DNA of 40,001 nucleotides, taken from assembly GCA_030526225.1 (NCBI GenBank), contig JAUNDF010000002.1, positions 5,128-45,128 on the forward strand. Direction: 5' to 3'. Below are positions 153 to 38,872 of the stretch, piece after piece. The notes under the pieces were generated by a model. The model had not been told where the DNA came from. It searched no databases and saw only the letters and a program-made list of their open reading frames with translations. This stretch comes from Clostridia bacterium (lineage in GTDB: Bacteria > Bacillota > Clostridia > Christensenellales > Aristaeellaceae). Position 1 is the first letter of the stretch. Each line of letters starts with the position of its first letter. The position numbers were made by a program, and so were the translations under genes.

Positions 153-1388
153 TTAGTGATGCATGCGGCCCTTGCCGAACAGGCTGCGGCGGCCGCCGTA
201 GGGGGTCATGCTGCCTGCCACCTGCGGGGTCAGGGCAGGGGCGGTCAGGCTGCGGTTCTTGGTAACGTTCAGCACCAGACCCACGCCCAGCATGTTGGTC
301 ATCATGTTGGAGCCGCCGTAGGAAATAAACGGCAGCGGGATGCCGGTAATGGGCATCAGGCCCATGGTCATGCCCATGTTCTCAAACACGTGGAACAGCA
401 GCATGCCCATCACGCCGATAATCACCAGCCGGCCGAACTTGTCGCGGGTGTAGGCGGACAGGTACAGCATCCGCAGGATAATCAGGAAGAAGACAATCAT
501 GATGCCCACACAGCCCACAAAGCCCCATGCCTCGCCGATGGTGGCGAAGATGAAGTCCGTCCAGTCGGCGGGCACGTAGTTCAGCTGGCTGATGGAGCCA
601 TCCACAAACATGCCGATGCCGGTCAGGCCGCCGGAGCCGATGGCTGTCTGGCTCTGCAAAACCTGATACGCGTCGGTGGAGGAATACAATTCGGGGTTGA
701 TGAAGGCCAGAATGCGGGCCAGACGGTAGCTGTCCGCGTTGGTGGCCACGGTAAAGCCGTACAGGGCGGCGATGCCGATGACGGCCACACCGGCCATGCC
801 CATCAGCAGACGGAAGTCCACGTTGGCAAAGAACAGCATCACGGCGAAGAAGAAAATAATCACCAGAACGCTGCCCATTTCGCCGGACATCAGGGTAACA
901 AAGGTGGGGATGGCGACAATCAGCATCACCCGGAAAAACTCCTGCACATTGCCCATGGGCTTTTCCGACTGGGAAAGAACACGGGACAGCATCAGAATCA
1001 TGGCCAGCTTGATGAACTATGACGGCTGCAGCGTCATGCCCCAAATGATGTCCAGCCACGCCTTCACGCCCTCGGCACGGTTCAGCACCCACACAAGGGT
1101 CAGGAAGATGGTGCCGCCCCAGTAGAAGATGGGCGTGTAGCGGCGCAGAAAGTCGTAGGGAATCAGGAGCAGTACGGAAAGCACCACAGGACCCAGCGCC
1201 AGGAATACGCACTGTTTCACCGCGTAGGAGGATTCCACGATGCGGTTGAGCAGTGAGCCTGTGGGGGCCGAGTCCACGGTGTAGGTAGCGACACACACTG
1301 CCAGCACACCGAAGACGGCCAGACTGAATACAAGCAGAATCAGCGGCACGTCCACATGGGCCCGTGAATGTCTGTTTTCAACGATCAA
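153..1388 (-). CDS. rodA: SEDS-family peptidoglycan polymerase RodA/FtsW, with one in-frame TAG at 1017-1019
   Basis: ORFs 1017-1388 and 153-1001 share a frame (1388-1001=387). Read on the minus strand the junction is ...GMTLQPS-TAG-FIKLAMILML. It carries the SEDS motifs QPS(E)F and PFISYGGS. The start is a TTG overlapping the minD TGA (TTGA). The true stop is TAA. Confidence 0.85.
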
Positions 1389-2194
1389 AGCTTGTTGACC
1401 TCCTTGTGCTTGCGGCCAAAGAGCCGGGAGAAGAAGCCGGGCTTGCGCACGCCGTAGGCGGGGAAGGGCTCATCCATGCCCTCCATGCGCGCGGCAATGC
1501 GGGTGAGGGCATAGCGGGCCTCGCAGTCGCACTGCATCAGCGGCTTGTGGTTAATCAGGCTCCGGTATACCACCGGGTCCCGGGGCACCTCGCCCAAAAG
1601 GGGCAGGTCCAGGGTCTGGGATACCACGGCGGCGGAGTACATTTCCCCTGCATCAATCAGCTCGCTGTCCAGCATGTTGACAACAAGGCGCGGGGAGGGC
1701 ATGTCCTTGCCCTGCAGCACGGAGGCGGTGCGCTCCACGTTGCGGATGCACACATCGTCCGGGGTGCTGATGAGGATGGTTTCGTCCGTGTGCTTGTTCA
1801 GCAGCCCGCGAAGGCCGCGCTCGATGCCGGCGGGGCAGTCAATGAGCACATGGTCAAAGCTGAGCTTCAGCTGGCCAATCAGCTTCATAAATGCCTTTTT
1901 GTCCAGATCCTTGCTGCGGGCAAACTGGGCGGCGGGGACGAGGAACAGGTTGGTGTAATCGCCGTGGCGAATCAGGGCCTAATCCATGCGGCAGCGCTTT
2001 TCCAGCACATCCAGCAAATCGTAGACCACCCGGTTTTCCACGCCCAGAATCACATCCTGATCGCGCAGGCCGATATCGGCATCCACAATGCAGCAGCGGC
2101 AGCCCCGCTGGCTGAGCGCGGCGCCCAGCGCGGCCGTTACGGTGGATTTGCCAACGCCGCCCTTGCCGGATGCAATGATCCATGCTTTGCCCAT
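1385..2194 (-). CDS. minD: Septum site-determining ATPase MinD, with one in-frame TAG at 1979-1981
   Basis: Deviant Walker A SGKGGVGKS, Walker B region LIDCPAG and a C-terminal amphipathic GFFSRLFG are present. ORFs 1979-2194 and 1385-1888 share a frame. The junction ...EKRCRMD-TAG-ALIRHGDYTNLFLVPAAQ... is collinear with B. subtilis MinD EGRCKMHQALVKDKRF. Stop is TGA. Confidence 0.85.
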
Positions 2195-2239: not shown

Positions 2240-4804
2240 TTACGGGGCCACGGAGTTGCCGGTGGGCAGATCGTAATCCACCGTGCGCAGCTCTTCCTGG
2301 TTGAGGTACCAGTCCAGGAACTCTCTGGCGGCCATGGAGGCTTCACCGCCGGAATATCCGTTGGGGATAAACACCGCGATGGCAACCTCAGGTTTCTCGT
2401 AGGGGGCGAAGGTTACGAACCAGGCATTGTTCTCAAGGTCGATGGAGGTAACCTGAGCGGTACCGGTTTTTGCGCAGATTTCATCCCGGTATTTCCAGCC
2501 CTTGAAGTACTTGGCAGCAGTACCTGATTCGTCAACTACGCCCTTCATCCCCTTCTTGATGTAGGGCAGGTATTCCTCTGCGTTTTCCAGCACGTTGATG
2601 AGCGTAGGCTCGCGCTGGGAGAGGATTTCGCCCTCGGGGGAGATGATGGAGTCGATGATGGAAACGTTGTACACATAGCCGCCGTTGGCCAGGGCGCATA
2701 CATAGCGCGCAACGGCGACGGGGGTGACGGTGGTAACCGACTGGCCGATGGCCGTCAGAATGGTCTGGGCGCCGCCCCACTTGATGTCGTTCATGTAGTT
2801 GTACGTATCACCGATGACGGACTGCAGGTAGACCATTTCCTTGGTCATGTTCAGCTCTTCCATCAGGATGGTACGCATGTTGTCCAGCCAGTAGCTTTCA
2901 TCGTAGTTGACGGCCATGTCCATCAGGCGCTTGGCGCAGGCGGACAGACGGGCATCATCATAGGAAAGGTTTCTGGAGGCACCGCAGTTGCGCAGGTGCT
3001 TTTTGATGGAGTTGAAAACGATGATGGGCAGGGAGGTATCCTGACTGGCCTCGTTCATGGCCTTGGTGGTATCGTACAGGGTGTTCTGGCTGCCCACCAC
3101 GCTGCGGACCTCACCGGGCAGGTCGATGCCGGTTTTGCTGGTCAGGCCGAAGAGGGAGGCGTAGTGGTACAGCCGCTGCTCGCCCAAACGGCTGCCCAGC
3201 TCGTAGAAGAAGTAGTTGCAGGAGTTGGACAGACCCTCCACAATCGTCTGGTTTTGATGCTTCCAGCGGTTGCCCTTGCCAATCCAGCATTTGGGAGCGG
3301 TGGATTCGTCCTTGTTGTACTTGGTGTAGTAGCCCTGGTCGGTGATGCGCTCCTTCACCGTCAGCTCGCCCTCGCACAAGGCGCCCATGCTGGTGACCAT
3401 TTTGAAAATGGAGCCGGGGGTTCCGCGGGCGTGGATGCCGTAGTTGAGCAGCAGGTTGCGTTCATCGGCAAGGATGGTGATGGCTTCCTTGCCGCCGGCC
3501 ACCAGCGCATTCAGGTCGTAGGTGGGGTAGTTGGCCATGGCCAGCACCCGGTCCTCCATATCCAGAATGACCATACAGCCGTGCTCGGCCAGGGACATGG
3601 GGTAGGTGACCCAGTTGCGGTTGGCGATGTCCTCTTTGTTGTCCTCCAGCCAGGAGTCGGAGACCATCAGCTTTTCCTGATTGTCACGGGTGTTGTTGAC
3701 GTTGGCGGCAATGGCGCGCTCGGCCACCTCCTGATAGGAGGCATGGAGGGTCAGCTTGATGTTGTTGCCGTCCTGGGGGGCGGTGTAGCTCAGCTCGCGG
3801 ACCACGCGGCTCATGTTGTCGCGCTCCACCACGCGCTGGCCCTGACGCAGGTAGCTGTTCTGGGTCAGCCAGTCCTCCATGGAGGATTCGATGCCGTCGC
3901 GGCCGATGGTGTCATTGTACGAATAGCCCTTGGCCCGCAGGGTTTCCCACATGGCCTGGGAGGGGATGGCGCCGGTGTAGCCGATAATCTGGCTGGCAAG
4001 GGTTCGCTTGGGGTACACGCGCTTGGTGCCCACCTGAATTTCCATGCCCACCAGCATCATGGAGCGGGTCTCCACCTCGATGACTGTTTCGTACTTCACG
4101 TTCTGGGCGATGACGATGGGCTGGGAGGAGAACACGTTCATCTGCATTTCGCAGTAGATGGCCATGACCTTCAGCATGGTTTCCTCATCCAGAATGTGAA
4201 CGGGGGTGTACTTTTCGCCCTCCAGCTCCTTCAGGGGCTCGATTTCGCTGGCATCGTTGACAATGCGGAAGCGCTGCTTGAGCAGGTTGATGCACTTTTC
4301 CGCCGTGTCGTACTTGGTCATGCTGGTCAGGTAGTTGTTGCTGCGCCACTGGCGCTCACGCTTGGCCAGTACGCTGTCGGATACGCCGGAGCCGAAGTTG
4401 AACTCCCACTCGTTTGTTTCCGGATTGCGCTGAATGACAAAGTCAATGGCCATGGTACCGCCGTTGCGCTCGATGATTTCAATGGTGTCCACAATGGACT
4501 GGGTAAAGGCGGTGTATTCCCTGCGGGAATTCTGGGAGGCATCCTTGTAGAAGGTGACGTTGTAAATCAGCTCGTCCTCAGCCAGCAGCACGGAGTCCGC
4601 ATCGATGATGGAGCCGCGCTTGCCGCGCAGCACCACGGTTTTGGTGCGGGTGCTTTCCGCCTTGTCCGCATATTCCTCGCTGGATTTCAGCTGCAGGTTC
4701 ACAAGGCCGCTGACAAGGTAGGCGAACATCAGCAGCAGAATCACCACAAACAGGACATACCGCCACAGGATTCCCCGGGTGGCAGGGTTTGATGAACGGG
4801 CCAA
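2240..4804 (-). CDS. mrdA: Penicillin-binding protein 2 (elongasome class B transpeptidase)
   Basis: 854-aa ORF with an N-terminal TM helix and the transpeptidase motifs SxxK (GSIFK), SxN (SNS) and KTGT. A TTG start lies 6 nt after AGGAGG. Stop is TAA. It sits between mreD and minD. Confidence 0.9.
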   Translation of the reverse strand: MARSSNPATRGILWRYVLFVVILLLMFAYLVSGLVNLQLKSSEEYADKAESTRTKTVVLRGKRGSIIDADSVLLAEDELIYNVTFYKDASQNSRREYTAFTQSIVDTIEIIERNGGTMAIDFVIQRNPETNEWEFNFGSGVSDSVLAKRERQWRSNNYLTSMTKYDTAEKCINLLKQRFRIVNDASEIEPLKELEGEKYTPVHILDEETMLKVMAIYCEMQMNVFSSQPIVIAQNVKYETVIEVETRSMMLVGMEIQVGTKRVYPKRTLASQIIGYTGAIPSQAMWETLRAKGYSYNDTIGRDGIESSMEDWLTQNSYLRQGQRVVERDNMSRVVRELSYTAPQDGNNIKLTLHASYQEVAERAIAANVNNTRDNQEKLMVSDSWLEDNKEDIANRNWVTYPMSLAEHGCMVILDMEDRVLAMANYPTYDLNALVAGGKEAITILADERNLLLNYGIHARGTPGSIFKMVTSMGALCEGELTVKERITDQGYYTKYNKDESTAPKCWIGKGNRWKHQNQTIVEGLSNSCNYFFYELGSRLGEQRLYHYASLFGLTSKTGIDLPGEVRSVVGSQNTLYDTTKAMNEASQDTSLPIIVFNSIKKHLRNCGASRNLSYDDARLSACAKRLMDMAVNYDESYWLDNMRTILMEELNMTKEMVYLQSVIGDTYNYMNDIKWGGAQTILTAIGQSVTTVTPVAVARYVCALANGGYVYNVSIIDSIISPEGEILSQREPTLINVLENAEEYLPYIKKGMKGVVDESGTAAKYFKGWKYRDEICAKTGTAQVTSIDLENNAWFVTFAPYEKPEVAIAVFIPNGYSGGEASMAAREFLDWYLNQEELRTVDYDLPTGNSVAP

Positions 4805-4865
4805 CAGCGACCTCCTTTCTGTCCCCGGGGGCGAAAGCCGCAGGGACGCGTATTTCTGCCCGGGC

Positions 4866-5657
4866 TTACATGGCGTTCATGTAGCGGCCGCGGGCCTGTT
4901 TCTTTTCCTTGGGGGGCTTTTTGAAGCCCAGCATCCGGCGCACGGGCACCATCATCAGGATGGTGAGCACCGTGGTGTAGATCACAGCGCCGATAGCCCG
5001 GCCGTAGTGCACCGGCATCAGGGCAATGCCGCCGATGTACAGGTACAGCATGTGCACCACCTCGTACAGCAGCTGGCAGCAGGCGGCGCAAAGGGGCGTG
5101 CGCAGGTAGGGATGCATGTTGTGGGCCGAGGGATTGCTGGCCCGCTCCGCTTCCAGCCTCTTTTCACTCTTGTCGGCAAAGAATACCGACATGAACAGCG
5201 CCAGAATCGGGTACATCAGCAGATAGAAGAAAATCATGGGCTTCATCATTGCATCGGTGATGATGCCAAAGCAAGCGCCCGCCCAGTAGGCGCGGAGCAT
5301 GCCGTGGCACACGATGACGATGGCTATAACGGCCAGCATCACATTGGGGGTTACGCCGCCCATGGCCAGATAGGGCACGATGCACACCTGACACAGGTAT
5401 GCCAGCAGCACCACCAGCCAGAAGCGAACCAGCCGCATGATGCCGCGGAAGCAGCGGCTGACAAAGCCCAGAAAGCCCGTGCGCTGCTTTTCCTTTTTCA
5501 GGGCAGCCCGGTCGGTGGTGCGCAGGGTATCCGCCTGCCTTGTCCTGATGCCGACAGCCAGGGGATTCTCCGCTGCTTTCCCGGCAAGGGAAAAGCGGGA
5601 TTTCCCCTGCTCTGCCTGGGGGATGTCCTGGCCGGGCTGTCTTGTGATATCAGCCAT
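4866..5657 (-). CDS. mreD: Rod shape-determining protein MreD (start uncertain; an internal ATG at 5438 is possible)
   Basis: The C-terminal two thirds is polytopic and hydrophobic, and the gene sits directly after mreC. The ATG at 5657 lies 3 nt downstream of the mreC stop. The 73-aa N-terminal extension is basic and low in complexity. Confidence 0.7.
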   Translation of the reverse strand: MADITRQPGQDIPQAEQGKSRFSLAGKAAENPLAVGIRTRQADTLRTTDRAALKKEKQRTGFLGFVSRCFRGIMRLVRFWLVVLLAYLCQVCIVPYLAMGGVTPNVMLAVIAIVIVCHGMLRAYWAGACFGIITDAMMKPMIFFYLLMYPILALFMSVFFADKSEKRLEAERASNPSAHNMHPYLRTPLCAACCQLLYEVVHMLYLYIGGIALMPVHYGRAIGAVIYTTVLTILMMVPVRRMLGFKKPPKEKKQARGRYMNAM

Positions 5658-14632: not shown

Positions 14633-15346
14633 TCAGCGGATGATTTCCTTCCCGGAGGCGGCCAGCAGGGTATCGAACAGACCGCCGGCGGAAAACCTGT
14701 CCGTGGGGAAATCGAACACCGCCTATTGAATCTTGCCCAATTGGTGGGCATCGGAGGAATGCAGCACCGCTCTGCCTGCAAGGATTTTCTCATTGATGGG
14801 CAGCTGAGGGGAAACCTCCACCAGCCCGTAGTGCGGCTCATCAGGCATCAGGCCCAGATTGACCAGCAGGCCGTTGCTGCCCCGGTTGATGTGGGCCGGC
14901 ACCGCAATGCCCCCTCTGCGGCGAACCTCTGCGGTGCATTCCTCAAGGGATAAATCCGTGGCGCCGATGAGCATCCTGTCCTCGGTGAAGCGAATGACAT
15001 CATCCGTGTCGCGAACATACTGGGTGCCGAAGAAGTCGGGCATGTTGGGCATATCCGGCAGATGGGAGGAGAAGAATTCCCCGGCATCCACCGCAGCCTC
15101 CACGGTGCGGAAGTACCCCAGCAGGTGCACCTCCTCCCGGGTGGTAATCTCCAGCCCCGGCAGCAGAATCAGCCCGAAATAATCAGCCGCTTCCTTGACA
15201 TAGGGCAGATTGAGGGCGGAGTTGTGGTCGGTGACGGCGATGGCCTGCAGCCCTTTGATGTGAGCCATGCCGCAGATGTTGGCGGGGGTCATGTCCTCAT
15301 CTGCGCAGGGGGACAGGCAGGAGTGAATGTGCAGGTCAACCAGCAA
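14633..15346 (-). CDS. PHP (polymerase/histidinol phosphatase) domain protein; the apparent TAG stop at 14723-14725 is read through to TGA at 14633
   Basis: DLHIHS, VTDHNS and HSSDAH motifs are present. After ...HQLGKIQ-TAG the frame stays open for 29 codons (AVFDFPTDRFSAGGLFDTLLAASGKEIIR) and ends at TGA. Confidence 0.7.
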
Positions 15347-15728: not shown

Positions 15729-17027
15729 TTACTGTCTCGTATTCTGTGCCAGGGCCACCATTTGCTGGGCCATGGCGCGCAGGTGATCCTTCAGGATGTG
15801 GATGCAGTCCATCTCGCTGGCGTAGCCCCGGACGATATCCTCGGCGAAGGTGCGGCAGGTGGGGGAGCCGCAGGAGCCGCAGTCGTAGCCGGGCAGGCGG
15901 TTGATGGTTTCGTCAATCTGCTCCATTTTCCGCATGGCCTCGATGATGTCGTCGTCCAGCCGCATGGCACCGTTGGGCAGCACCACATCGGGTGCGTGCA
16001 GCTGGATGCCCTCCAGCAGGTTCAGCTCCACCGGCTTTTCCGGCAGCAGGGCCGGGTCGCCTTCAATCAGCCGGCGGACGATATTGCGGGCCACATAGTT
16101 GTTTTCAAAATTCAGCGGACCGCCCACGCAGCCGCCGGTGCAGGCGTTGCCCTCGAAGAAATCAAGGTCGCTGAGCTTGCCGTCCTCAATCTCCTAAAGC
16201 ACACGGATGACGTTCTCAATCCCGTCCACGGACATGCTGCTGCTGTGGCCCACCGCATTGGCCTCGCCGCCGCTGTTGGCCCAGCCCACGCCCAGGGCGC
16301 TGGCGGTGACCAGCGTGTCATCCTCTTCGGCTTGCTTGGTGTGGCTTGAGAGCAGACCGTAGATTTCCAGCACGCTGATGGCCCCGTCCACCGCGGAGGT
16401 GGGATGGCCGATGGGGGAGCGGATGGCGGTCACCTTGGCCGGGCAGGGAGTGATGAAAAAGCAGCCGATGTCCTCCTCCGGCACGCGGTTTTTCCTTGCG
16501 AACGCCCGCTTGGCCATCATGGCGGCAACCTCCATGGGCTGGCGCACATCCACGAGGTTGTCAATCAAATCGGGGAAGCGCACCTGAATCAGCCGCACAA
16601 TGGCCGGGCAGGCGGAGGAAATCAGCGGCTTGGGGCAATCAGGCTCCCGCAGCTTTTCCTGAATGACGCGGGTGACCACATCGGCACCCCGGGCCACCTC
16701 AAACACATCGTCAAAGCCCATTTTCTTCAGCCCCGCCAGCACCGGAGAGATGCTGTGCAGCGTTTTAAACTGCCCATACAGGCTGGGGGCCGGCAGGGCG
16801 ATTTTGTATTTGAAGGCGCTGATGGTGCTCAGCGGGTCCGTTACCGCCACCTTGGCGTGATGGTCGCACACGCGGATGCATTCGCCGCAGTCGATGCACA
16901 GCTCGTCGATGATATGCGCTCTGCCGCCGCGCACGCGGATGGCCTCCGTGGGGCAGCGCTTGAGGCAATTGGTGCAGCCCCTGCATTTATCCGCCAGAAG
17001 CGTGACAGAGTGGAAGCGTTTTTCCAT
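15729..17027 (-). CDS. HydS-like (putative sensory) [FeFe]-hydrogenase-domain protein, with one in-frame TAG at 16194-16196
   Basis: It has two N-terminal ferredoxin motifs. The H-cluster-type motifs are SSACPAIV (Ala at the relay-Cys position), TPCPAKV and ACTGGCVGG. A C-terminal CGSCGSPTC Fe-S domain follows. ORFs 16194-17027 and 15729-16127 share a frame (900 nt apart). The junction reads ...NVIRVL-TAG-EIEDGKLSDLDFFEGNACTGGCVGG. Confidence 0.8.
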
Positions 17028-21999: not shown

Positions 22000-23039
22000 C
22001 AGTTCAGCACCGCCGCTTTCATCCCGCCCCAGCGGGTCGTTTGGGATACCAGCTGCCGCAGCCCCTGCAGCATGGCGGGGGTGGGCTGCTGGGTGAGCAT
22101 GGAGGCCAGCACCTCCTGCATATCACGCATACCAACGCCCTGCTTGGCCAGAATGCGCAAATCCTGCACGGCCTCATCCTCGTTGGTTTCCGGGCGCACG
22201 GCATCCTGAATCAGACCAATCATCTGCAGCGTGGTTTCTGCCTCTTCAGGCAGGATGCCCGCCACGGCGCTGAGCAGCGTCATTTCGTCCATTCTGGGGG
22301 GCAGGCTGCTGCCCATGGCGGCAATGAAGGGCTCCGGCTCCGCAAGGCCCGGGTGCAAAAGAAACCGGCGGCCGTCCATGCGGCAGATAAAGTCACAGCT
22401 GATGTGCAGATACCGCTGGCACAGGCGGATGTCATCGGGGTCATCGGTCTCCATGGCATCCTGCACCAGATGCTCCAGCGCCTCCTCAAAGGGGACCACG
22501 CCGCGTATGTACAGCAGACCCCGCAGCGTCATGTCAAAGCGCATCAGGCGCTCGCGCAGCTCCTTGTGCACGTCATCGAAAATCATCTCGGCCACGGAGG
22601 GCACCAGCTACGGGGACATGCGCAGGAACAGCCGCTCGTCATCAACCCATTCAAGGTAGCACCACAGCCGCCGCACCAGCGACTCGGCAGGGAGGGCATC
22701 CTCCATGTCTGTCAATTCGGCCCGGCCGCCGCCCACAATCAGCTTTTCCAGCAGCAGATGCTCGGGGAGGGTGACCAGCGCCGTTTCCACCGGAAGGTTT
22801 TCGATGACCATATCCCGCAGCATGCTGACGGTATGCAGCCGCCTTTCCCGGGGGAACTCCTGGGCAGCATGGCTGATGGACCACAGCTGCTCGGCGCGGC
22901 TGTCATCCTGTAAAGCGAATAAATCAAAATCCGGCAACCCGGAAAGCCGGCTTTCGCAGGCCTCCAGCTGTCGGAGATGCAGGACAGACATGGTCTTGTC
23001 CGCCCAGTGATCATACCGAACATTGTTTTCCCGAAGCAT
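21999..23039 (-). CDS. Hypothetical protein (346 codons), with one in-frame TAG at 22608-22610
   Basis: ORFs 22608-23039 and 21999-22604 share a frame (435 nt apart). The junction reads ...ERLFLRMSP-TAG-LVPSVAEMIFDD. A strong RBS, AAAGGAGAACAA, precedes the ATG at 23039. There is no RBS or start for the second half. Stop is TGA. Confidence 0.65.
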
Positions 23040-24470: not shown

Positions 24471-26348
24471 ATGGTGCGATATCTGTTCCTGTTCGGGGAT
24501 GCTGCGCTGCGCCTTACCCGTGTTTCCCTGTGGGCGGATGAGAGCGGCGCCGTATGCGCCATCCCCGGGGATGATGATGAAATCCGTGTGGTGCACGTGG
24601 GGCTGAATCCCCCGGATGAAGCACTGCAGAAGCGGCTGGCGCTGTACGGTGCCTTCGGCAGCATGGCGGACGGAAGCCCCTGCCGGGTGTCCTTTGTCAG
24701 CCTTTGCCCCCGGCTGCCCGGGGGGAAGCAGTCCCTTCAGGGGGCAGCCGTACCGCAGGAGGCACTGCTGTACCGCGCCCTGTTCGGGGAAGAAGAGGAA
24801 GACCTGCAGGCATTGATGGCCCGCCACAGCGAGGCCGCCGAGGCAGTGCTGCGCCGCTGGCTGACCGGCGGAAGCGACCCTGCGCTGAAGGATGCACTGG
24901 ACGACATCCGTGATGCGGCGGAAAGCTGCGGCGCGCAGGTACTGCTGTGCGCTCAGGGGGATGACGGCTTTGCCTGTGCCGGCATGATGACCATGCTGGA
25001 TACGCTGGCGCAGATGAAGCAGCAGTCCCGGGGCTACCTGAAGCTGGGGGCCATGGCTCTTCTGCCCGATGGAGAGAAGAATGGTGCCGGTCAGCTGGTC
25101 AATGCGCTGGCAGACCGGGCGGAAACCGGCGTGCCGGATGTGGTGTCCCTGATGGGCTGCCCCGGCTGGCAGGGCGGCGCGCAGGCTGATTTTATGGACC
25201 TGCCCGCCGCCGCACTGATGCTGGATTTCTTTGCGCAGATGGATATCCCGCGGGAACCGCAGGTGCATATGCTGCATCTGGCGGATTCCCTGTACACCGC
25301 CGATTTGCTCCCGGGGGCTGCCATGGCAGGCTATCAGGCGCTGGTGAAGGCATCGCTGCTGTATCGCTATGAAATGCTGCCCGTGATTCGGGAGCGGCTG
25401 GCATCTCCGTCCCTACTGAAGGACAGGCAGCGGGGCTGGTATGCCGCCGGCTTCGGTGCAGTGCGCAAGCTGGATGAAAACCACCGGCAGGAGACCATCC
25501 GCAGGGCGGAGCAGCTGGCTGAACTGCTGAAGCTGTACACCGAGGACATGGCGCAGATTGCCGATACGGTCCCTGCCGCCCTCAGTGCCGGAGACAAGCG
25601 CGCCTCTGCCATGCAGGAGGCGGTGAAGAACTACCGTGCGCTGCTGGAAGCCGCGGGTGAGCTGGCGGATATCGAGCGCACCATGAAGGCATACAATCTG
25701 CAGGATGACGGTGCAGTGGTCCGCGGCAAGGGTCCGGATGATTTTGCCGCGCGTCTATTGCGGGACGCAGCAGAAAAGCGCAAAGAGCTGCAGCAGCTGC
25801 GCCAAGTGCAGGCATCGCTGGACAAGACCATCGGCGGCATGGGCAAGCTGATGCTGATGGACCGCATGCTGGCAGGCATCCGCCGGGCATTGGCCGTGGA
25901 GGAAAAGGAAGCGGCCCGCCGGGAGATGATGATTGCGCAGATTGAGCGGGACAACCCCGGCACCCTTGAGGAAATGGAGCAGCGCCGGGTGCCTCTCAAT
26001 AGGCTGGCCATGCACATTCAAAAGCTGCGCAGCCAGCAGGAATATCTGGAAAAGGAACGGCAGGAGGCGGAAGAAACACGCCTGTGGGCCGAAGCACCGG
26101 AGGTGGAACCGGCCTGCACCGTGCTGCCCGGCGCTGCCGCGCTGGATGATTTCCGTAAGCGGGCGGTGCAAATCCGCAAGGACAGCGAGCTGTATCAGCT
26201 GCTGGATGACCTGCTGCCCGAATGCACACCCTGCCGCACGGCAGAAAAGCTGTTGGGCGGCATCAGCCCGGCACAGACCGGCGATGAGGCACTGCATCAA
26301 CTGATGGCACAGCTGTGCCGCATGTTCAGGGGAGAGGAGGCGCGATGA
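24471..26348 (+). CDS. Large uncharacterised protein A (625 aa; globular N-terminal half, charged coiled-coil-like C-terminal half)
   Basis: The ATG at 24471 follows GAAGGGGG, and an in-frame TAA lies at 24441. No family was recognised. The stop overlaps the start of the next gene (ATGA). Confidence 0.7.
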   Translation: MVRYLFLFGDAALRLTRVSLWADESGAVCAIPGDDDEIRVVHVGLNPPDEALQKRLALYGAFGSMADGSPCRVSFVSLCPRLPGGKQSLQGAAVPQEALLYRALFGEEEEDLQALMARHSEAAEAVLRRWLTGGSDPALKDALDDIRDAAESCGAQVLLCAQGDDGFACAGMMTMLDTLAQMKQQSRGYLKLGAMALLPDGEKNGAGQLVNALADRAETGVPDVVSLMGCPGWQGGAQADFMDLPAAALMLDFFAQMDIPREPQVHMLHLADSLYTADLLPGAAMAGYQALVKASLLYRYEMLPVIRERLASPSLLKDRQRGWYAAGFGAVRKLDENHRQETIRRAEQLAELLKLYTEDMAQIADTVPAALSAGDKRASAMQEAVKNYRALLEAAGELADIERTMKAYNLQDDGAVVRGKGPDDFAARLLRDAAEKRKELQQLRQVQASLDKTIGGMGKLMLMDRMLAGIRRALAVEEKEAARREMMIAQIERDNPGTLEEMEQRRVPLNRLAMHIQKLRSQQEYLEKERQEAEETRLWAEAPEVEPACTVLPGAAALDDFRKRAVQIRKDSELYQLLDDLLPECTPCRTAEKLLGGISPAQTGDEALHQLMAQLCRMFRGEEAR

Positions 26349-29300
26349 TGGAGGAAAAGATGACAGCCCGAACCGGGGAGCAGACAGCCGACCGTCTGCT
26401 GCCCTCCTTCAGCATGCTTCCGGTGTGCGATATCCCCGCAGACCAGCCCACGGGTGTGGTGGGCATCGGCCACGGCAGCAGCCGCTGGCTCCGCCGTCTG
26501 GCCGACCGCCTGGGCGGCACCGGCATGACCTATGCGGCCAAAGAAAAGCTGGCCGGGGCCATCCGGGACAAGGGCGAGGCATACACCTGCTGGCGGGGAA
26601 TGCTGGCCATGCTGCTCCTGTGGGATTTGCACCGTGATGCGCCCCAAGCCTTGGAGGCCGTTTGCTGGGACAAGGGCACGCCTTTGGCCGCCATGCTGCT
26701 GGAAGCCTCCGGTCTGCAGGACAGCGCCGCCTTTGGGGAGAAGCTGTGCGTGATGACCCTTCGTCAGGGCGGCAGACAGCTGCCTGTGGCCATTCCCGAC
26801 CGGGAGGCACTGCTGGTGCCCGCCGTGGATGCATCCCTTGACAGCGACGTGATTCCCCCGTGGGTCACATGGTTTGACCGGGATGAGGGCAAAATGCAGG
26901 ACCCCGTGGGGCTGATGAACGAAACGGAGCGGGAGGTGCTGGTCAAGCGGCTGCAGCTGTTCCTGCAGGCGTATGGCGCGGAGGAAAGCGCCCTGTCACA
27001 GGCGGTGCGCCAATTGGCAGAGGACACGGCAAAAATCAACCGCGATGCCAGAGAAGCCCTGTCAGACAGCAAGGGCAGTGCCGTGCAGGAGCTGGCATTG
27101 CGCATTGAGGCCATCCTTGGGCTGAAGGGTCACGAGGCTTTCCCGGGGCTGACCGGCGACAGCGCGGTGATGCAGACCGGCGGCACCAATCCGGTGCTGA
27201 GTGCATTGCACATCCCCCACAGCGCGGACCGCAAGCTGGTGTGCTGCACCACCTACCGCTGGAACGGCGTTCCCTTTGCCCGGGATGCCGAGCGCTTTGT
27301 CTACGAGCCTACGGGCCATGCTGACGAAGCCGCCGCGCTGGATGAACTGAGCCTGGAGCTGGACCTTGCGGCGGAATATATCCCCCACTGGAACGAGCAT
27401 CTGTCCGGGGGGCTCAGCGAGCTGTGGGAAAAGTGCAAGCGCAAAAACCGCCTGTATCCCGCGGTGACCAAAACGGTGTTCCAGCTGTTTGGCCGTGCGG
27501 ACAAGCAGAAGGAAACAAAGCCCGTGGTGCTGAACATTCCCGAGGAACGGGGTCTTGCCGCCGCCGGGTATCTGATGAAAACACTGCTTGGCGATGATGC
27601 GGCCCAGCTGCCCCAGAAGCTGTTCAGCGACCGGCTGACGCTGGTGCCCTTTGCCGCCCTTGCGGATGGTGCGCTGGCACAGGCCGCCTTTGTCCGCTAT
27701 GATGAGGACGGCAGCCCCCTGTGCGCTCTGCCGCCCCTGTCTGCGGCGCTCACCGCCTTTTTGACCGAGCGGGCTCACATCACCCTGCAGCCGGAGGGGC
27801 TGCGCTTCCTGCCTGCCGATGAGGAGGGCAGCCTGTAGGTGCGCCTGATGCTCCGCGGCGCGGGGGAGGTGTCCTTCAGCCGCGTATATCGGGCAGAGGA
27901 TATCATCACCCTGAACCATGACAGCATGCCCACGGTCAGCGTGTGGCCCGGCGTGGCTTTCCCTGAGGGGGACTGGCAGTATTATCTGCTTTAGGCCTTC
28001 CGCGGCGAAGAAGGCATCACCTTCAGCGTGTGGGAAAAGGATGGCTGGGTGCACTGCGCTCAGGGTGCGGAGGAGCGCATTTTCCGTGGGGCAAGGTGCA
28101 GCCGTTATCCCCGATTGATGGCCGTCAGCATGGACGGACTCTCCTTGGGTGCACTGCCCGATACGCCCCCTGTGTGCGATGTGCCCTCCGGCGGCGAAGC
28201 GGCGGCGGGCATCGACTTCGGCTCCTCTGCCGCGGCCACGGCCATCCTGATGGGCGACAGCATGATGAGCATCACCGGGGCAGATTGCCGCCGGGTGCTG
28301 ATGCAGGGCGAATTTGCGCCGGTGCCTGTGCTGGCCCAGCCGGTGATGCCCTCGGCACTGCAGCTGTGCGCCCGTCAGCTGCCCCATCGCCCCCAGCCTA
28401 TGCTGGACAGCCGCATCCCCTCCGAGGCGGATACGCTGGCAGAGGGCGCGGAAAACATCATCGACAACATCCCGTGGCGGGTGGAAAATGACCGGCAGGA
28501 AATGATTCGCCTGTACATGCTCCAGCTGATGCTCACCACGGCGCTGGCCTGCCGCCTTCAGGGTGCCGACCGCATCACGTGGCGCTTTGCCCTGCCCGAC
28601 AGCATGGCTTAGGCCGGCAAGGCATCGCTGATGAACCAGCTGTCCTACCTGACGGATGAACTGGCGGACATGACAGGGCTGCCTGCCCAAAAGGAGCCGC
28701 CGGTGATGGTCCCCGGCTGCCGTGCTCAGATGCTGTACTTCCGCGAGCGCAGGGATGTGAATGTGCGCGGCGGGTGCATCCTGCTGGATGTGGGCAGCAA
28801 CGGTGCCTCCGTGGCCCTGTGGCTTCGGGGCAGGCAGGCCCCTGTGCTGCAGATGGCGCTGCCTCTGGGCGTGGACCTGATGCTGGAAACCATGGCGGAT
28901 GAAAGCCAGATCAGCGCACTGCTGCACCTGCACGGCGCCTTCCTGATGCTCCTTTCCGGCGTGATGGCCCAGAGCGTGTACATGACCTCCTCCGTCAGCC
29001 ATCTGCTGCCGGAAACCATGCCGGTGTGCATGGCGGGACGGGGCGGCTCCTTGCTGCAGCGCATTGACGAAATGGACCGCATCCGCCTGCTGGACTTTAT
29101 GCGCCCGGCCATGGAGGAGACCCATCCCACCGTATCCGCCGGCTATGTGTTCAGCGAATACCCGAAGATGGAAACAGCCGCCGGCCTTGTGCTGTATGCT
29201 CCGGAGCAGGAGGAGGACACCGCCTCTGCCGGCATTGCCATGCGGACCCCGTGGCCGCCGGAGCAGCTGCTGATTGGCTTTATGCGCCTGTTCGGCGTGC

Positions 29301-29500
29301 GCTTCCCCTGGGAGGCTGCCGCCATGTTCCCGCAGATGTTTGCCCGGGACGGCTACCTGTCCGTGGACGGCGAAAACCTGCTGATGGCGCTGGCGGAGGA
29401 ATGCATGACCGGCCAGCCCCTGACGGACGGGCTTTTGCGGGTGATTGCACAGCTGCGCACCATGGCCTTCCCCATGGGCGGCAGCATGGATGAAATGTGA
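26345..29500 (+). CDS. Very large uncharacterised protein B (about 1051 codons) with a C-terminal actin/Hsp70-fold (ASKHA) ATPase domain; three in-frame TAGs (27836, 27992, 28610)
   Basis: Track ORFs 26315-27838, 28028-28612 and 28631-29500, plus the 51-codon gap segment, are all in one frame (start positions all 2 mod 3). I verified codon by codon that TAG is the only interruption. ASKHA-like motifs are AAGIDFGSS (from 28208), ILLDVGSNGASVAL (about 28787) and CMAGRGGSLL (about 29030). These parallel the MreB motifs in this window. Confidence 0.7.
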
Positions 29501-29577
29501 TGCTTTGCGCATACCGGCCCCATGGGCTGGACGATTGTATCAATAACTGAATCAGGATTCCGGAGGTGAAAGCAACC

Positions 29578-29889
29578 ATGATGAAGAATCTGCAGGTATA
29601 TGCCTACTGCCGCTCCGACCCCGGTGAAGGGGAGGAGACCATCGACCGCCAGAAGGCAAAGCTGGAGGCCTACGCAAAGGATAAGGGCTGGACAATCGTC
29701 GGGTGGTACATCGACCGCAACATCGACGGCAAAACCCCCGACAGGCCGGAGATGAACCGCCTGAAGGCTGATACCGCCGATATGACCAATCCGGCGGTGA
29801 TTATGGAAAAGTTTGCCACCTGGTTTTCCCGGTCCAACCCCGATGATTTCTCCGTGCCGTTTCTGGCCTATGTGACGGAGGCAAACTGA
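29578..29889 (+). CDS. Small resolvase-catalytic-domain-like protein (degenerate, no DNA-binding domain)
   Basis: 103 aa. VYAYCRSD..TIDRQKAKLEAYAKDKGWTIVGWYIDRNIDGKTPDRPEMNRL is collinear with serine-recombinase N-termini (YxRVS..Q...L..YA...GW.IV..Y.D.G.SG...RP). The RVS and SG signature residues are altered. Confidence 0.5.
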   Translation: MMKNLQVYAYCRSDPGEGEETIDRQKAKLEAYAKDKGWTIVGWYIDRNIDGKTPDRPEMNRLKADTADMTNPAVIMEKFATWFSRSNPDDFSVPFLAYVTEAN

Positions 29890-29910: not shown

Positions 29911-30909
29911 ATGAAAAGATTGTTTGCGGCGGTGCTGGCCATGGTGCTGGCGCTGTCCCTGACCTGTGCCCATGGCGATATCCTCCCCGATACCGCCCCG
30001 CTGGGCCTTTCCTTTGATGTCAACGCCGCGGAATGGGAGCCGGATTTGATGTTCCTCGACTCTGCGGCGGCAGACAAGAGCTATGTGCTGCTGTATGCCA
30101 TGTACATCAACAGCGCCGTGATGGACCCGCTGGCGGATGCCTATTAGCAGGCCTATGAAGCCGGTGACGAGGCCGGGGCAGAAGCGGCCCTGACGGCGTA
30201 CCGGCAGGCACAGACGGCCAATTCCGCTGTGTGCGGCATGCTGGTGGGCTTTGAAAAATCACAGGCGGATGCGCTGAAGGCAGAAATCTTCGGGGATGCC
30301 CAGCTGACAAAGGTGGGCGAAAGCAGCACCCATGTGTACTACAAAATCGTGGCCGAGGAGCCTGACGAAGCCCTTTCCCCGGAGAATCAGGCAGAGATGG
30401 TCAAGGCCATCGCCCTGACAAAGCAGGTCTTCGATGCGGCACAGGTGGTTGAAATCACCGAGGAAAGCTATACCGGCACATCCATCGGCGCCTTCTCCAC
30501 CCGGGATCTGCAGGGCAGTGAGGTGACGGATGACATCTTCGCACAGGCGGATTTGACCGTGCTCAACGTGTGGGCCACCACCTGCCCGCCCTGCATCCGC
30601 GAGATGCCCGAGCTGGAGGCATGGTCCCATGATCTGCCCGAAAATGTACAGGTCATCGGCCTTGTGATTGACGTAAGCGACACCTCCGGCAAGGTGTATG
30701 ACACCGCCATGACCATCATCGGCAAAACCGGCGTCACCTACCGCAACCTGATGATGGACCGCTCCCTGACGGGCTTTGTCAGCGGCATCATCGGCACCCC
30801 CACCACCTTCTTTGTGGATAAGGACGGCCGTCAGGTGTGCGAGCCTGTGGTGGGTGCGTATATGGACATGTACAGGCAGAACGTGACTGACTGGCTTTCC
30901 GGCCGGTAA
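29911..30909 (+). CDS. TlpA/ResA-like thioredoxin-fold lipoprotein, with one in-frame TAG at 30145-30147
   Basis: Signal peptide MKRLFAAVLAMVLALSLTC and active site WATTCPPC. ORFs 29911-30147 and 30229-30909 share a frame (318 nt apart). The junction reads ...DPLADAY-TAG-QAYEAGDEAG. Confidence 0.75.
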
Positions 30910-35022: not shown

Positions 35023-35047
35023 AATCTATCTCCTGTGGATGTGTTGT

Positions 35048-36394
35048 TCAGAACCGGACGGTAATGGCGGTGCCCTTGCCCTCTTCGCTCTCCAGCTTGA
35101 TGTCGGCGCTGTGGATTTCGGCAATGTGCTTGACGATGCTCAGGCCCAGACCGGTGCCGCCGGTTTCCCGGGAGCGGCTCTTGTCCACCCGGTAGAAGCG
35201 CTCGAACACGCGGCTTTGCTGCTCCTTCGGGATGCCGATGCCGCTGTCGGATACGGTGAGGATGGCGTGGCTGTTCTCCGAGGAGACCTTCACCCGCACC
35301 CAGCCGCCGTCACGGTTGTAGCGGATGGCGTTCTGCAGCAGGTTCTCCAGAAGCTCCTTCAGCTGTTCGCGGTCGCCGGTGAGCATGGTATCCGTGCCGA
35401 TGCAGCTGATGGTGATGTTCCTTTGAGCGGCGGTGATACGCAGGGTGCGCACACAGTCCAGCGCCAGCTTGTACAGGTTCAGGTGCTCGAATTTGTGGGG
35501 CAGCTACTGATGGTCCAGCTCGCTGAGGCGGATGATGTCGTTGATCAGGCTCAGCAGACGGTCGGCATTTTGGTGAATCTGCCCGGCGATTCTGCCGGAC
35601 TGGTCCGGGGGCACCATGCCCGCTTCAATCAGCTCTGCATAGCCGGAAATGGCGGTGAGGGGCGTTTTCAGCTCGTGGGAGATGTTGGCGGTAAAATCCT
35701 GCCGGCTTTTGACGGAGGACAGCAGCTTGTCGTGCTGGCTGCGGATTTTATCCGCAAAGGGCTCCAGCTCCCGGTATTCCATGGGGTCGATGTGGTCCAG
35801 ATGCTCGGCCATCTTGTTGATGGGGCGGATGAGCTGCACCGTCAGCAGATGACCGATGACGATGCACAGCCCCATGATGACGGCCAGAATCACCACCATC
35901 ACCGGCAGGGCGGAAAGCATCACGCTGATGATGGACCGTGCCTCGGTGGATACGCGCAGAACCGTGCTGTCCGGCAGGAGCAGCGCGTAATAGAAGGTGG
36001 ACATGTTCTGCGTGGAGGAGGTGCGGGTGCTTTCACCAGTGCCCTGCGCCAGGGCAGCGGTGATTTCCGGGCGGTCCAGGTGGTTGCCCAGGGCATCGGC
36101 GTTGGTATCGTTGTCATACAGCACACGGCCGTCATGATCCACCCAGGTGATGCGCAGACCGTCCACATGCATGGCAGCCATGGGGGACAGGTCGATGGCG
36201 TCCGGGTTGCCGCCGGCCTTTTCGTAGGCGGTCTGGAAAATCCCCGTGCCGGAAAGCATCCGGGCGTTGGTGGCAAGGTCCATGCGGACCCGGCCCACGA
36301 AAATGTTGTAGTACACAAAGGTCAGGGCGGCGGTGGTGGCCAAAATGGCAATCAGCGCAATCAGCCCCAGCCGCAGGTTGATTTTCTGCTTCAT
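35048..36394 (-). CDS. PhoR-like sensor histidine kinase, with one in-frame TAG at 35504-35506
   Basis: It has two TM segments, the H-box SHELKTPLTAI, the N box LLQNAIRYN, and G boxes DSGIGIP and GGTGLGLSI. ORFs 35504-36394 and 35048-35452 share a frame (942 nt apart). The junction reads ...LSELDHQ-TAG-LPHKFEHLNLYKLALD. Confidence 0.8.
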
Positions 36395-37093: not shown

Positions 37094-38872
37094 TCATCCG
37101 TTCTGCACCGGCAGGGTATAATGCCGGCGGCACTTCTTATATTCTTCGGCAAACCAGGGGGCTTCTCCTTTTACGGCGGTGTATTTGTGGGTGCCGAATT
37201 CGTCATGGGCGGTTTCAATCAGGCACACGGCCACATTGGAGCAGTGGTCGGATACGCGCTCGTGGTCGGTGATGATGTCCTCCAGCACAAGGCCTGCCTC
37301 CATGGAGCAGCGGCCGGTGCGAAGGCGGGCGATGTGGCGCTGCTTCATTTCGTCCCGCAGGTCATCCACCACCTGTTCCAGCGGCTATACGCTCCTGGCC
37401 AGCAGGGTGTCCCCGTCGGCAAACACGGTGACGGTCAAATCAAGAATGTCCGACACGGCGCGGCCGAAGGCGGTCAGCTCGTCCATGGCATCATCCGACA
37501 GGGTGATGCCCTTCTCCCGCAGCTCCCGGGCGGATTCCACCATGTTCATCGCGTGGTCGGAGATGCGCTCGAAATCGGAGATGGAGTGCAGCAGCTGGCT
37601 GAGCAGCTTGCTGTCCTCCAGCGCCAGATCGTGGCCGGAAAGCTTGACCAGATAGCTGCCCAATGCATCCTCATAGCGGTCGCACAGCTTTTCCATGGCC
37701 AGCACCTCACCGGCCTTTGCTTCATCAAACCTGTACAGCACCTGCATGCCCGTGCGGAAGGCCTTGCGGGCGGTATCCGCCATTTCATCCGCGGCATTTT
37801 TGCACAGGCGGATGGCGAAGGAGGGCTGGTCGAGGAAGCGCTCGTCCAATGCGGCCAGCACGGCAGGCTGCTGCACGGCGGGCTTTGCATCGCCCTTGTC
37901 GGGGATGGTCTTCTCCGCCATCTTCACCAGCAGATTGCCGAAGGGGAACAGAATCAGGGTGCAGCCGACATTGAACACGGTGTGCATCAGGGCGATGCCT
38001 GCCGCGCCCACGGCTTCATCCAGGAAGGGCATGGGGACAAACAGCTTCGCGCCGTAGAAGCCGGCCATAAACAGCACCGAGCCGATGACGTTGTAATACA
38101 GGTGAATCATGGCGGCGCGCCGGGCATTTTTGCTGGCACCGGCCGAGGAAAGAATGGCGGTGACGCAGGTGCCGATGTTCTGCCCCAGAATGATGGGCAG
38201 CGCCGTGCCCCAGGTAACCATGCCGGTCATGCACAATGCCTGCAGAATACCCACCGAGGCAGAGGAGGACTGAATCACGGCCGTGAGCACTGCACCGGCC
38301 AGCACGCCCAGAATGGGGTTGGAGAAGGCTGTGAGCAGGCCGGTGAAGTTGGGGTCATCCTTCAGGGGAGAGACAGCGCCGGACATGGTTTCCATGCCGG
38401 TCATCAGCACCGTGAAGCCGAGGAAGATGGTGCCGACAGTCTTCTTTTTGCTGCCCTCTTTGGCGGTCATCAGCAGAATGATGCCGATCAGCGCCAGCAC
38501 AGGGGAGAAGGAGGAGGGCTTCAGCAGCCGGATGAAAATGTTGGTGCCGGAGATGCCTGCCAGGGACAGAATCCAGCTGGTCACCGTGGTGCCGATGTTG
38601 GCGCCCATGATGATGCCTACCGCCTGCCCCAGCTTCATGATGCCGGCGTTGACAAAGCCCACCACCATCACCGTGGTGGCAGAGGAGGACTGAATCACCG
38701 CCGTGACCACCATGCCCAGCAGCAGGGCGGCAAAGCGGTTTTTCGTCAGCTTTTCAAGAATTTTCTCCAGCCGTCCGCCGGAGAGCTGGACCAGACCGTC
38801 GCCCATCACCTTCATGCCGTACAGGAACAGGGCAAGGCCGCCTGCCATGGTCAAAACATGGAAAATATCCAT
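37094..38872 (-). CDS. Na/Pi cotransporter family protein with C-terminal PhoU-like repeats, with one in-frame TAG at 37385-37387
   Basis: It carries GANIGTTVTSW and GQNIGTCVTA, then PhoU-like FERISDH and ERVSDHCSN. ORFs 37385-38872 and 37094-37372 share a frame (1500 nt apart). The junction reads ...TLLARSV-TAG-PLEQVVDDLRDEMK. Confidence 0.8.

Follow-up and report, generated by a model that had tools for sequence, protein, structure and literature searches.

A three-TAG gene and eight others point to a probable reassignment of UAG to glutamate in a gut Clostridia bacterium

A 40,001-nucleotide stretch of the metagenome-assembled genome (MAG) of a Clostridia bacterium (assembly GCA_030526225.1, contig JAUNDF010000002.1; the whole stretch is called the window below) carries the gene of a protein, named here protein B, whose 1051 codons include three in-frame TAG triplets. 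Comparison of this gene and of eight others in the window with their homologs indicates that TAG is very probably a sense codon in this organism. What probably underlies this is an organism-wide reassignment of TAG to glutamate, under which protein B is a single 1051-residue protein and its TAGs are ordinary Glu codons. On balance, this would be the first natural bacterium reported to have converted the UAG stop into a glutamate codon. It would use a new translation table in a GC-rich and non-reduced gut member of the Clostridia, presumably free of release factor 1 (RF1) and equipped with a Glu-accepting tRNA(CUA), from a clade in which TAG terminators are nearly extinct.

The frame of protein B is open from position 26288 to its TGA at 29498-29500 apart from the three TAGs. 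Translation probably starts at ATG 26345, which has GGAGAGGAGG ahead of it and, in an ATGA, shares bases with the TGA that ends the upstream gene. Within the interval 27836-28612, in frame 1, TAG is codon 1, codon 53 and the last codon, and the number of other stops is zero; translation in frame thus confirms the original prediction, made from the letters of this DNA, that the TAGs at 27836, 27992 and 28610 share one frame without other stops. Because TGA off frame amounts to ~3% of codons in the window, a frame of 1051 codons without TGA or TAA is not random. Codon-position GC in the gene (GC3 ~0.80 > GC1 ~0.68 > GC2 ~0.46 for the third, first and second positions) is typical of coding on the + strand and is unchanged before and after each TAG. 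An open reading frame (ORF) of 816 amino acids opposite protein B is a shadow frame. The presence of three TAGs in this one gene is only mildly above what a uniform spread would give (P = 0.07).

Under the standard code the gene falls into pieces that had been put at 497, 51, ~205 and ~295 amino acids. The sizes are right: the public annotation has four consecutive hypothetical proteins of 496, 51, 194 and 289 amino acids (MDO4482970.1-MDO4482973.1). The accompanying claim that no ribosome-binding site lies ahead of the downstream segments does not strictly hold at TAG 1, where a GTG stands directly 3′ of the TAG and a GAGGAGG, which stems from D-E-E-G codons, lies 11 nt upstream of the GTG (27816-27841). 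From its sequence, this pair is an accidental mimic of a ribosome-binding site and start, and accounts for the annotated ORF of 51 amino acids.

Two checks had been proposed together with the original prediction, namely a search for uninterrupted homologs and a structure prediction to see whether the ASKHA fold is completed across the TAG at 28610. A word-indexed protein search with protein B found a single homolog, of 1752 amino acids, uninterrupted and aligned across all three TAG positions. An exhaustive HMMER search found 214 homologs, among them 79 at E<1e-30, with sizes of 1040-1140 amino acids, or of ~1710-1770 where a part resembling protein A, the product of the upstream gene, is fused at the N-terminus. 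Single alignment stretches with these homologs reach query residues ~65-850 and cross all three TAG sites. In the HMMER homolog set, a protein B in four pieces occurs solely in the source genome's own annotation.

The second check relies on a full-length AlphaFold2 model (1051 residues), built with X at the TAGs and an alignment of 45 sequences. Its mean predicted local distance difference test (pLDDT) score is 85.5 and its predicted template modelling (pTM) score 0.77, with local pLDDT of 85-94 at residues 498, 550 and 756, the sites of the three TAGs. In the model the TAG 3 site lies between strand 741-750 and helix 758-777. In a Foldseek comparison with the PDB, the C-terminal ~400 residues match the DnaK nucleotide-binding domain, MamK, MreB, ParM, AlfA and PPX, all with probability 1.0. 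The fold appears completed across the TAG at 28610, with the phosphate-1 motif before it and the phosphate-2 and adenosine motifs after it in a confidently modelled domain. As judged from the model, the C-terminal domain of protein B is a member of the ASKHA superfamily, with an actin/Hsp70 fold of two RNase-H-like subdomains and the phosphate-1, phosphate-2 and adenosine motifs. It has in common with known members the Foldseek probability of 1.0 at TMt 0.5-0.6 and the three motifs in the right order. It differs by an identity of 10-13%, by the ~600 residues of unassigned fold that precede the domain and by the pairing or fusion of protein B with the tubulin-like protein A. The view that the stretch is one protein made by reading through, and not a plausible set of four ORFs abutting in one frame, is upheld by the uninterrupted homologs and by the confident full-length model.

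In protein A, the N-terminal ~270 residues give a tubulin/FtsZ-like model (pLDDT 69) and are followed by long coiled helices; its Foldseek matches to tubulin, BtubA/B and FtsZ are weak, at E values of 1e-3 to 3e-2. No family was matched in Pfam, NCBIfam and PADLOC searches with proteins A and B. From these models, the two proteins look like a translationally coupled and uncharacterised module that combines a tubulin-like and an actin-like component.

The window encodes rodA, minD, PBP2, mreD, mreC, mreB, maf, a HydABC-type hydrogenase, a HydS-like sensor with regulators, ilvE, a two-component system and a Na/Pi-PhoU transporter, and by this content it is a piece of ordinary bacterial chromosome. 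With TAG taken as sense and frames chosen by codon-position GC, it holds 34 complete genes. In-frame TAG occurs 11 times, in nine of these genes, TAA and TGA not once, and there are no frameshifts; the terminators are TGA in 22 genes, TAA in 12 and TAG in none (Table 1). Eleven nonsense mutations arising at random would all be TAG with a probability of P = 0.0017. Nine of the 11 TAGs are confirmed as internal by domains or homologs that span them, and codon-position GC is equal on both sides of every one. A twelfth TAG, at 35028, was rejected as a coding triplet, being intergenic and placed between the ribosome-binding site AGGAGA and the start codon (ATG) of the gene that follows. No shared motif or read-through signal was seen around the 11 sites, where the following base is G in six cases, C in four and T in one. 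This lack of a common motif argues against a context-dependent recoding signal and against a motif-specific sequencing error. TAG makes up ~1.4% of the Glu-type codons in the window (11 versus 803 GAG and GAA). TAG also stands in frame in eight other window genes, so the phenomenon belongs to the code of the organism and is no peculiarity of protein B.

Table 1. Genes of proteins A and B, ASKHA motifs of protein B and in-frame TAG codons, in window coordinates
Feature	Position	Strand	Remarks
Protein A, 625 amino acids	24471..26348	+	TGA overlaps protein B ATG (ATGA); many homologs have A and B fused
Protein B, one 1051-codon gene with three TAGs read as sense	26345..29500	+	ATG 26345, stop TGA 29498-29500
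TAG 1, protein B residue 498	27836..27838	+	homolog column R23/E14/T14/L9/Q6, n=77; local pLDDT ~92
TAG 2, protein B residue 550	27992..27994	+	homolog column Y38/S20/F7, local alignment register uncertain; local pLDDT 85-94
TAG 3, protein B residue 756, in ASKHA domain	28610..28612	+	homolog column A13/P13/E10/D10; pLDDT ~87
ASKHA phosphate-1 GIDFGSS, residues 622-628	28208..28228	+	upstream of TAG 3; sequence inspection
ASKHA phosphate-2 LLDVGSNGAS, residues 813-822	28781..28810	+	downstream of TAG 3; sequence inspection
ASKHA adenosine motif CMAGRGGS, residues 895-902	29027..29050	+	downstream of TAG 3; sequence inspection
TAG in rodA (QPS-TAG-F)	1017..1019	-	Pfam FTSW_RODA_SPOVE match spans site in one stretch
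TAG in minD	1979..1981	-	homologs align through site
TAG in PHP-domain gene	14723..14725	-	homology continues past site
TAG in HydS-like sensory [FeFe]-hydrogenase gene	16194..16196	-	Fe_hyd_lg_C match spans site
TAG in gene of unknown function	22608..22610	-	coding signal only, equal on both sides; no homologs obtained
TAG in redoxin lipoprotein gene	30145..30147	+	between lipoprotein signal peptide and redoxin domain
TAG in histidine kinase gene	35504..35506	-	between HisKA and HATPase_c
TAG in Na/Pi cotransporter-PhoU gene	37385..37387	-	inside second PhoU domain

The amino acid that TAG stands for was sought in the homologs, which comprised 120 MinD proteins, 80 loci around minD from GTDB representatives, 120 HydS-like proteins, 80 metagenome loci around the HydS-like gene and six plasmid-borne Na/Pi transporters. 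In RodA the TAG falls in the motif QPSEF, in a column that is E in 83/83 sequences. The HydS-like column is E in 120/120 proteins, in 77/80 loci and in 3/3 PDB HydA chains. For the PHP protein the column holds E in 22/27 homologs and D in 2/27; the PDB alignments for this protein end short of the TAG site. The PhoU column has E in 2/2 of the closest homologs (V-E-PLE motif) and K, V, I or L in more distant ones, while in the PDB alignments the canonical PhoU column is variable (I/C/A/R). With each column down-weighted to ten effective sequences, the likelihood of E at TAG is >10^4 above that of D, Q or R, and Q in particular lies ~10^5 below E. At the conserved TAG sites the relatives use GAG and GAA, so that a change from GAG to TAG is a single G-to-T step. 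Read from these alignments, TAG behaves as a Glu codon in the window genes.

The nearest genomes are MAGs of Clostridia from gut and rumen that have not been cultured, under the labels Clostridia, Aristaeellaceae, Christensenellales, Candidatus Egerieenecus or Faecalibacterium sp. CAG:74. Identity to these relatives is at most 69% for RodA and up to 81% for PBP2, and their gene order maf-mreBCD-pbp2-minD-rodA is that of the window. None of the 83 related loci (L003-L085) has an internal TAG in the seven genes of the mre cluster, and the source species was not found among GTDB representatives in a contig scan with protein B. Counts of terminators made with a crude GC-frame gene caller give 31/740 genes ending in TAG (4.2%) in the nearer relatives versus 31/167 (18.6%) in more distant, Limiplasma-like genomes of similar GC content. 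By these counts, the clade to which the lineage belongs had already all but given up TAG, which is the setting expected by the codon-capture model.

Several side observations concern the same relatives. One locus, L047 (MAG220, 65% GC), was considered as a recoded relative and rejected, the TAG of its mreC being taken as a normal terminator, with the next stop 11 codons further on; the read-through tail of this mreC (L047:1-1437) resembles the C-terminus of the window MreC (..LSWE vs ..MTWE). The PBP2 of the window (2240-4876) shares 81.5% identity with its counterpart in a rumen MAG (GCA_017516645.1, L003-L005), and the flanking MinD, RodA and MreB are 62-69% identical to those of any relative; the excess could reflect uneven conservation or a past gene transfer. 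Finally, four loci of the Clostridia-type mre/minD kind (L027, L052, L057 and L007) occur in GTDB records titled Phocaeicola dorei, Bacteroidaceae, Alloprevotella or Lachnospiraceae; these bins are probably mislabelled.

Presumably, a Glu-charged tRNA with the anticodon CUA reads TAG in this organism; CUA rather than UUA is expected because TAA still terminates. RF1 would have been lost or would no longer read UAG, and release factor 2 (RF2) would terminate at UAA and UGA, the only terminators observed. The route was probably codon capture, whereby the rarity of TAG as a terminator would have made it tolerable to lose RF1 and for TAG to reappear later at former GAG positions. Clostridia generally make Gln-tRNA by means of a non-discriminating glutamyl-tRNA synthetase (GluRS) and GatCAB, and such an enzyme tolerates either of two bases at anticodon position 36. 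This tolerance makes Glu charging of a CUA tRNA plausible. A suppressor derived from tRNA-Glu would escape transamidation and would thus stay charged with Glu. An Rfam scan of the window gave no RNA family, and prfA is not in the window.

Against an organism-wide reassignment to glutamate speaks a series of observations. These protein sequences are carried by one MAG and one sequencing run, with no other sample, and a single MAG takes the place of a phylogenetically coherent recoded clade. ARAGORN found no tRNA gene in the window. The MinD column is an exception, variable and mostly glutamine, with Q104/E6/D5 in the 120 proteins and Q57/D6/R6/Y5/S3/E2 in 83 loci, and E accounts for 2-5% of homologs overall. 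The column of TAG 2 in protein B is made up of Tyr, Ser and Phe. Given TAG terminators at ~4% in near relatives, finding 0/34 in the window has P ~0.23 and is not significant in itself; with so few relatives' genes ending in TAG (only 4%), the absence of TAG terminators was discarded as proof of reassignment. In the literature, a 2026 preprint that screened ~2.7 million assemblies, of which this MAG may not be one, names UGA as the only reassigned stop in the bacterial cases that it lists, known and newly supported, and gives none with TAG; it places many further candidates in a separate dataset, which lies outside this comparison (10.64898/2026.04.02.715157).

The alternatives differ in what they make of these data. 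Ambiguous decoding, in which RF1 persists alongside a natural suppressor tRNA that puts Glu at TAG only part of the time, so that TAG is both stop and sense, is the most serious of them and is still unlikely. The small share of TAG among Glu-type codons (only ~1.4%) fits a young or leaky assignment. However, the products of the essential single-copy genes rodA and minD and of the three-TAG gene of protein B would then be made inefficiently, no common context follows the TAGs that could modulate read-through, and no gene among the 34 is terminated by TAG, which is weak evidence.

Another possibility, also unlikely, is that TAG is sense and encodes Gln, as in phage code 15 and in many eukaryotic codes, through a tRNA-Gln(CUG) changed to CUA and transamidated normally. 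One transition turns CAG into TAG, the literature has amber codons reassigned to Gln more often than to any other amino acid (PMC8629427), and the MinD column, with Q in 104/120 and 57/83 sequences, is what this code would predict. Yet Gln is absent at the columns where Glu is invariant or nearly so (0/83 in RodA, 0/120 and 0/80 in the HydS-like protein and 0/27 in the PHP protein), and its likelihood is far below that of E, as given above. In MinD itself, D, E or A occupies the TAG column in several of the nearest relatives, so the site tolerates an acidic residue.

An artefact of sequencing, assembly or damage (e.g. G-to-T oxidation), or contamination by DNA of an organism or phage with another code, is highly improbable. 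All data do trace to the single run SRR24915835. Nevertheless, two different assemblers give identical sequence, the Logan assembly of this run being identical to the window over 2806 bp that include the rodA and minD TAGs. Damage of the G-to-T type would also make TAA from GAA, of which there are 332 codons, and TGA from GGA, neither of which is seen, and the TAGs lack a common motif. Contaminant DNA is contradicted by the genes themselves, since those with TAG are contiguous bacterial housekeeping genes, ordered as in relatives, and are neither phage nor eukaryotic.

Decay of these genes to pseudogenes in this strain alone deserves hardly any credence: each of them is formally interrupted if read with translation table 11, and fragments are what the public annotation makes of them, but TAG is the sole type of lesion, without TAA, TGA or frameshifts (P = 0.0017), rodA and minD are among the affected genes, codon-position GC is identical on both sides of every TAG, and the TAGs sit at conserved Glu columns rather than in random scatter. 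Pyrrolysine, inserted at TAG by way of pylTSBCD, is to our knowledge the one sense meaning that UAG is known to have in natural bacteria and is not modelled by code-inference tools, but it is just as hard to credit, given TAGs in housekeeping genes at Glu-conserved positions and not in methylamine methyltransferases, the implausibility of a bulky lysine derivative at the invariant glutamate of RodA QPSE and the lack of pyl genes within the window.

Two neighbouring regions deserve mention. Between 9416 and 17923, a complete [FeFe] hydrogenase cluster of the electron-bifurcating type (HydA-like, NuoF-like and NuoE-like) adjoins the HydS-like sensory hydrogenase, in a segment that also holds the PHP phosphoesterase, DRTGG-like proteins and a histidine-kinase-like ATPase. 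With 75-79% identity to its relatives, HydS is far more conserved than the cell-shape genes. Directly after protein B, at 29551-29889, an ORF of 112 amino acids matches the serine-recombinase (Resolvase) N-terminal domain profile at positions 1-71 of 145 only; from its sequence it looks like a shortened remnant of a mobile element.

A reassigned TAG has consequences for databases. In the public annotation of the source MAG, which uses table 11, MinD is kept as a C-terminal 'P-loop NTPase' of 167 amino acids (MDO4482945.1, on a contig of 79,104 bp); this 100% identical entry covers only the last 167 residues of the protein, whose best full-length homologs are 64-66% identical. Likewise, the Logan gene calls split rodA (112 + 282 amino acids) and minD, which lie within 153-2239 of the window. 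Truncated entries, including MinD, RodA in two pieces and protein B in four, are now in NCBI nr and derived databases, and the table 11 annotation is wrong for roughly a quarter of the window genes. Recodings confined to a single MAG may slip past large code surveys. If the assignment to glutamate is true, it would show that bacteria, too, can capture the amber codon, and engineered RF1-free E. coli would have a counterpart in nature, a GC-rich bacterium of the free-living type. For genetic-code engineering, the organism could be a source of a natural amber suppressor tRNA that accepts Glu, together with its synthetase context.

According to the 2021 Codetta screen, all known bacterial stop reassignments involve UGA (PMC8629427), and stop reassignment is presented likewise in a paper of August 2026 that deals with UGA-to-Trp in Actinomycetota (PMC13462651). 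Literature searches for bacterial UAG-to-Glu found no case, and such a code change in a bacterium appears not to have been described in the bacterial literature searched.

Among known codes, the same meaning of UAG is found in eukaryotes, where both UAA and UAG (UAR) encode Glu in peritrich ciliates (code 30) and in Blastocrithidia nonstop. These are nuclear codes in which UAA is reassigned as well, whereas the window has no in-frame TAA and TAA ends 12/34 of its genes. The gut phages with code 15 (crAss-like, Lak and others; TAG to Gln) share with the window in-frame TAGs in a prokaryotic-type genome of the gut microbiome and genes that are broken by table 11. They differ in being phage genomes, often recoded only in late genes, with TAG as Gln; here, TAG aligns with Glu on a bacterial chromosome that carries cell-wall, division and hydrogenase genes. 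Bacterial reassignments of UGA comprise UGA to Trp, which is code 4 (Mycoplasmatales, some endosymbionts and Eggerthellaceae MAGs), and UGA to Gly, which is code 25 (Gracilibacteria/Absconditabacteria). Like the organism described here, they show an in-frame stop at conserved positions of chromosomal genes and gene fragmentation under standard-code annotation, and in both cases a mutant tRNA and the loss of the matching release factor are expected, in a setting where sister lineages already seldom end their genes with the codon (PMC13462651). The differences from them lie in the codon, UAG and not UGA, in the amino acid, Glu, in the release factor expected to be lost, RF1 and not RF2, and in a genome that is GC-rich (60%) and not reduced-looking.

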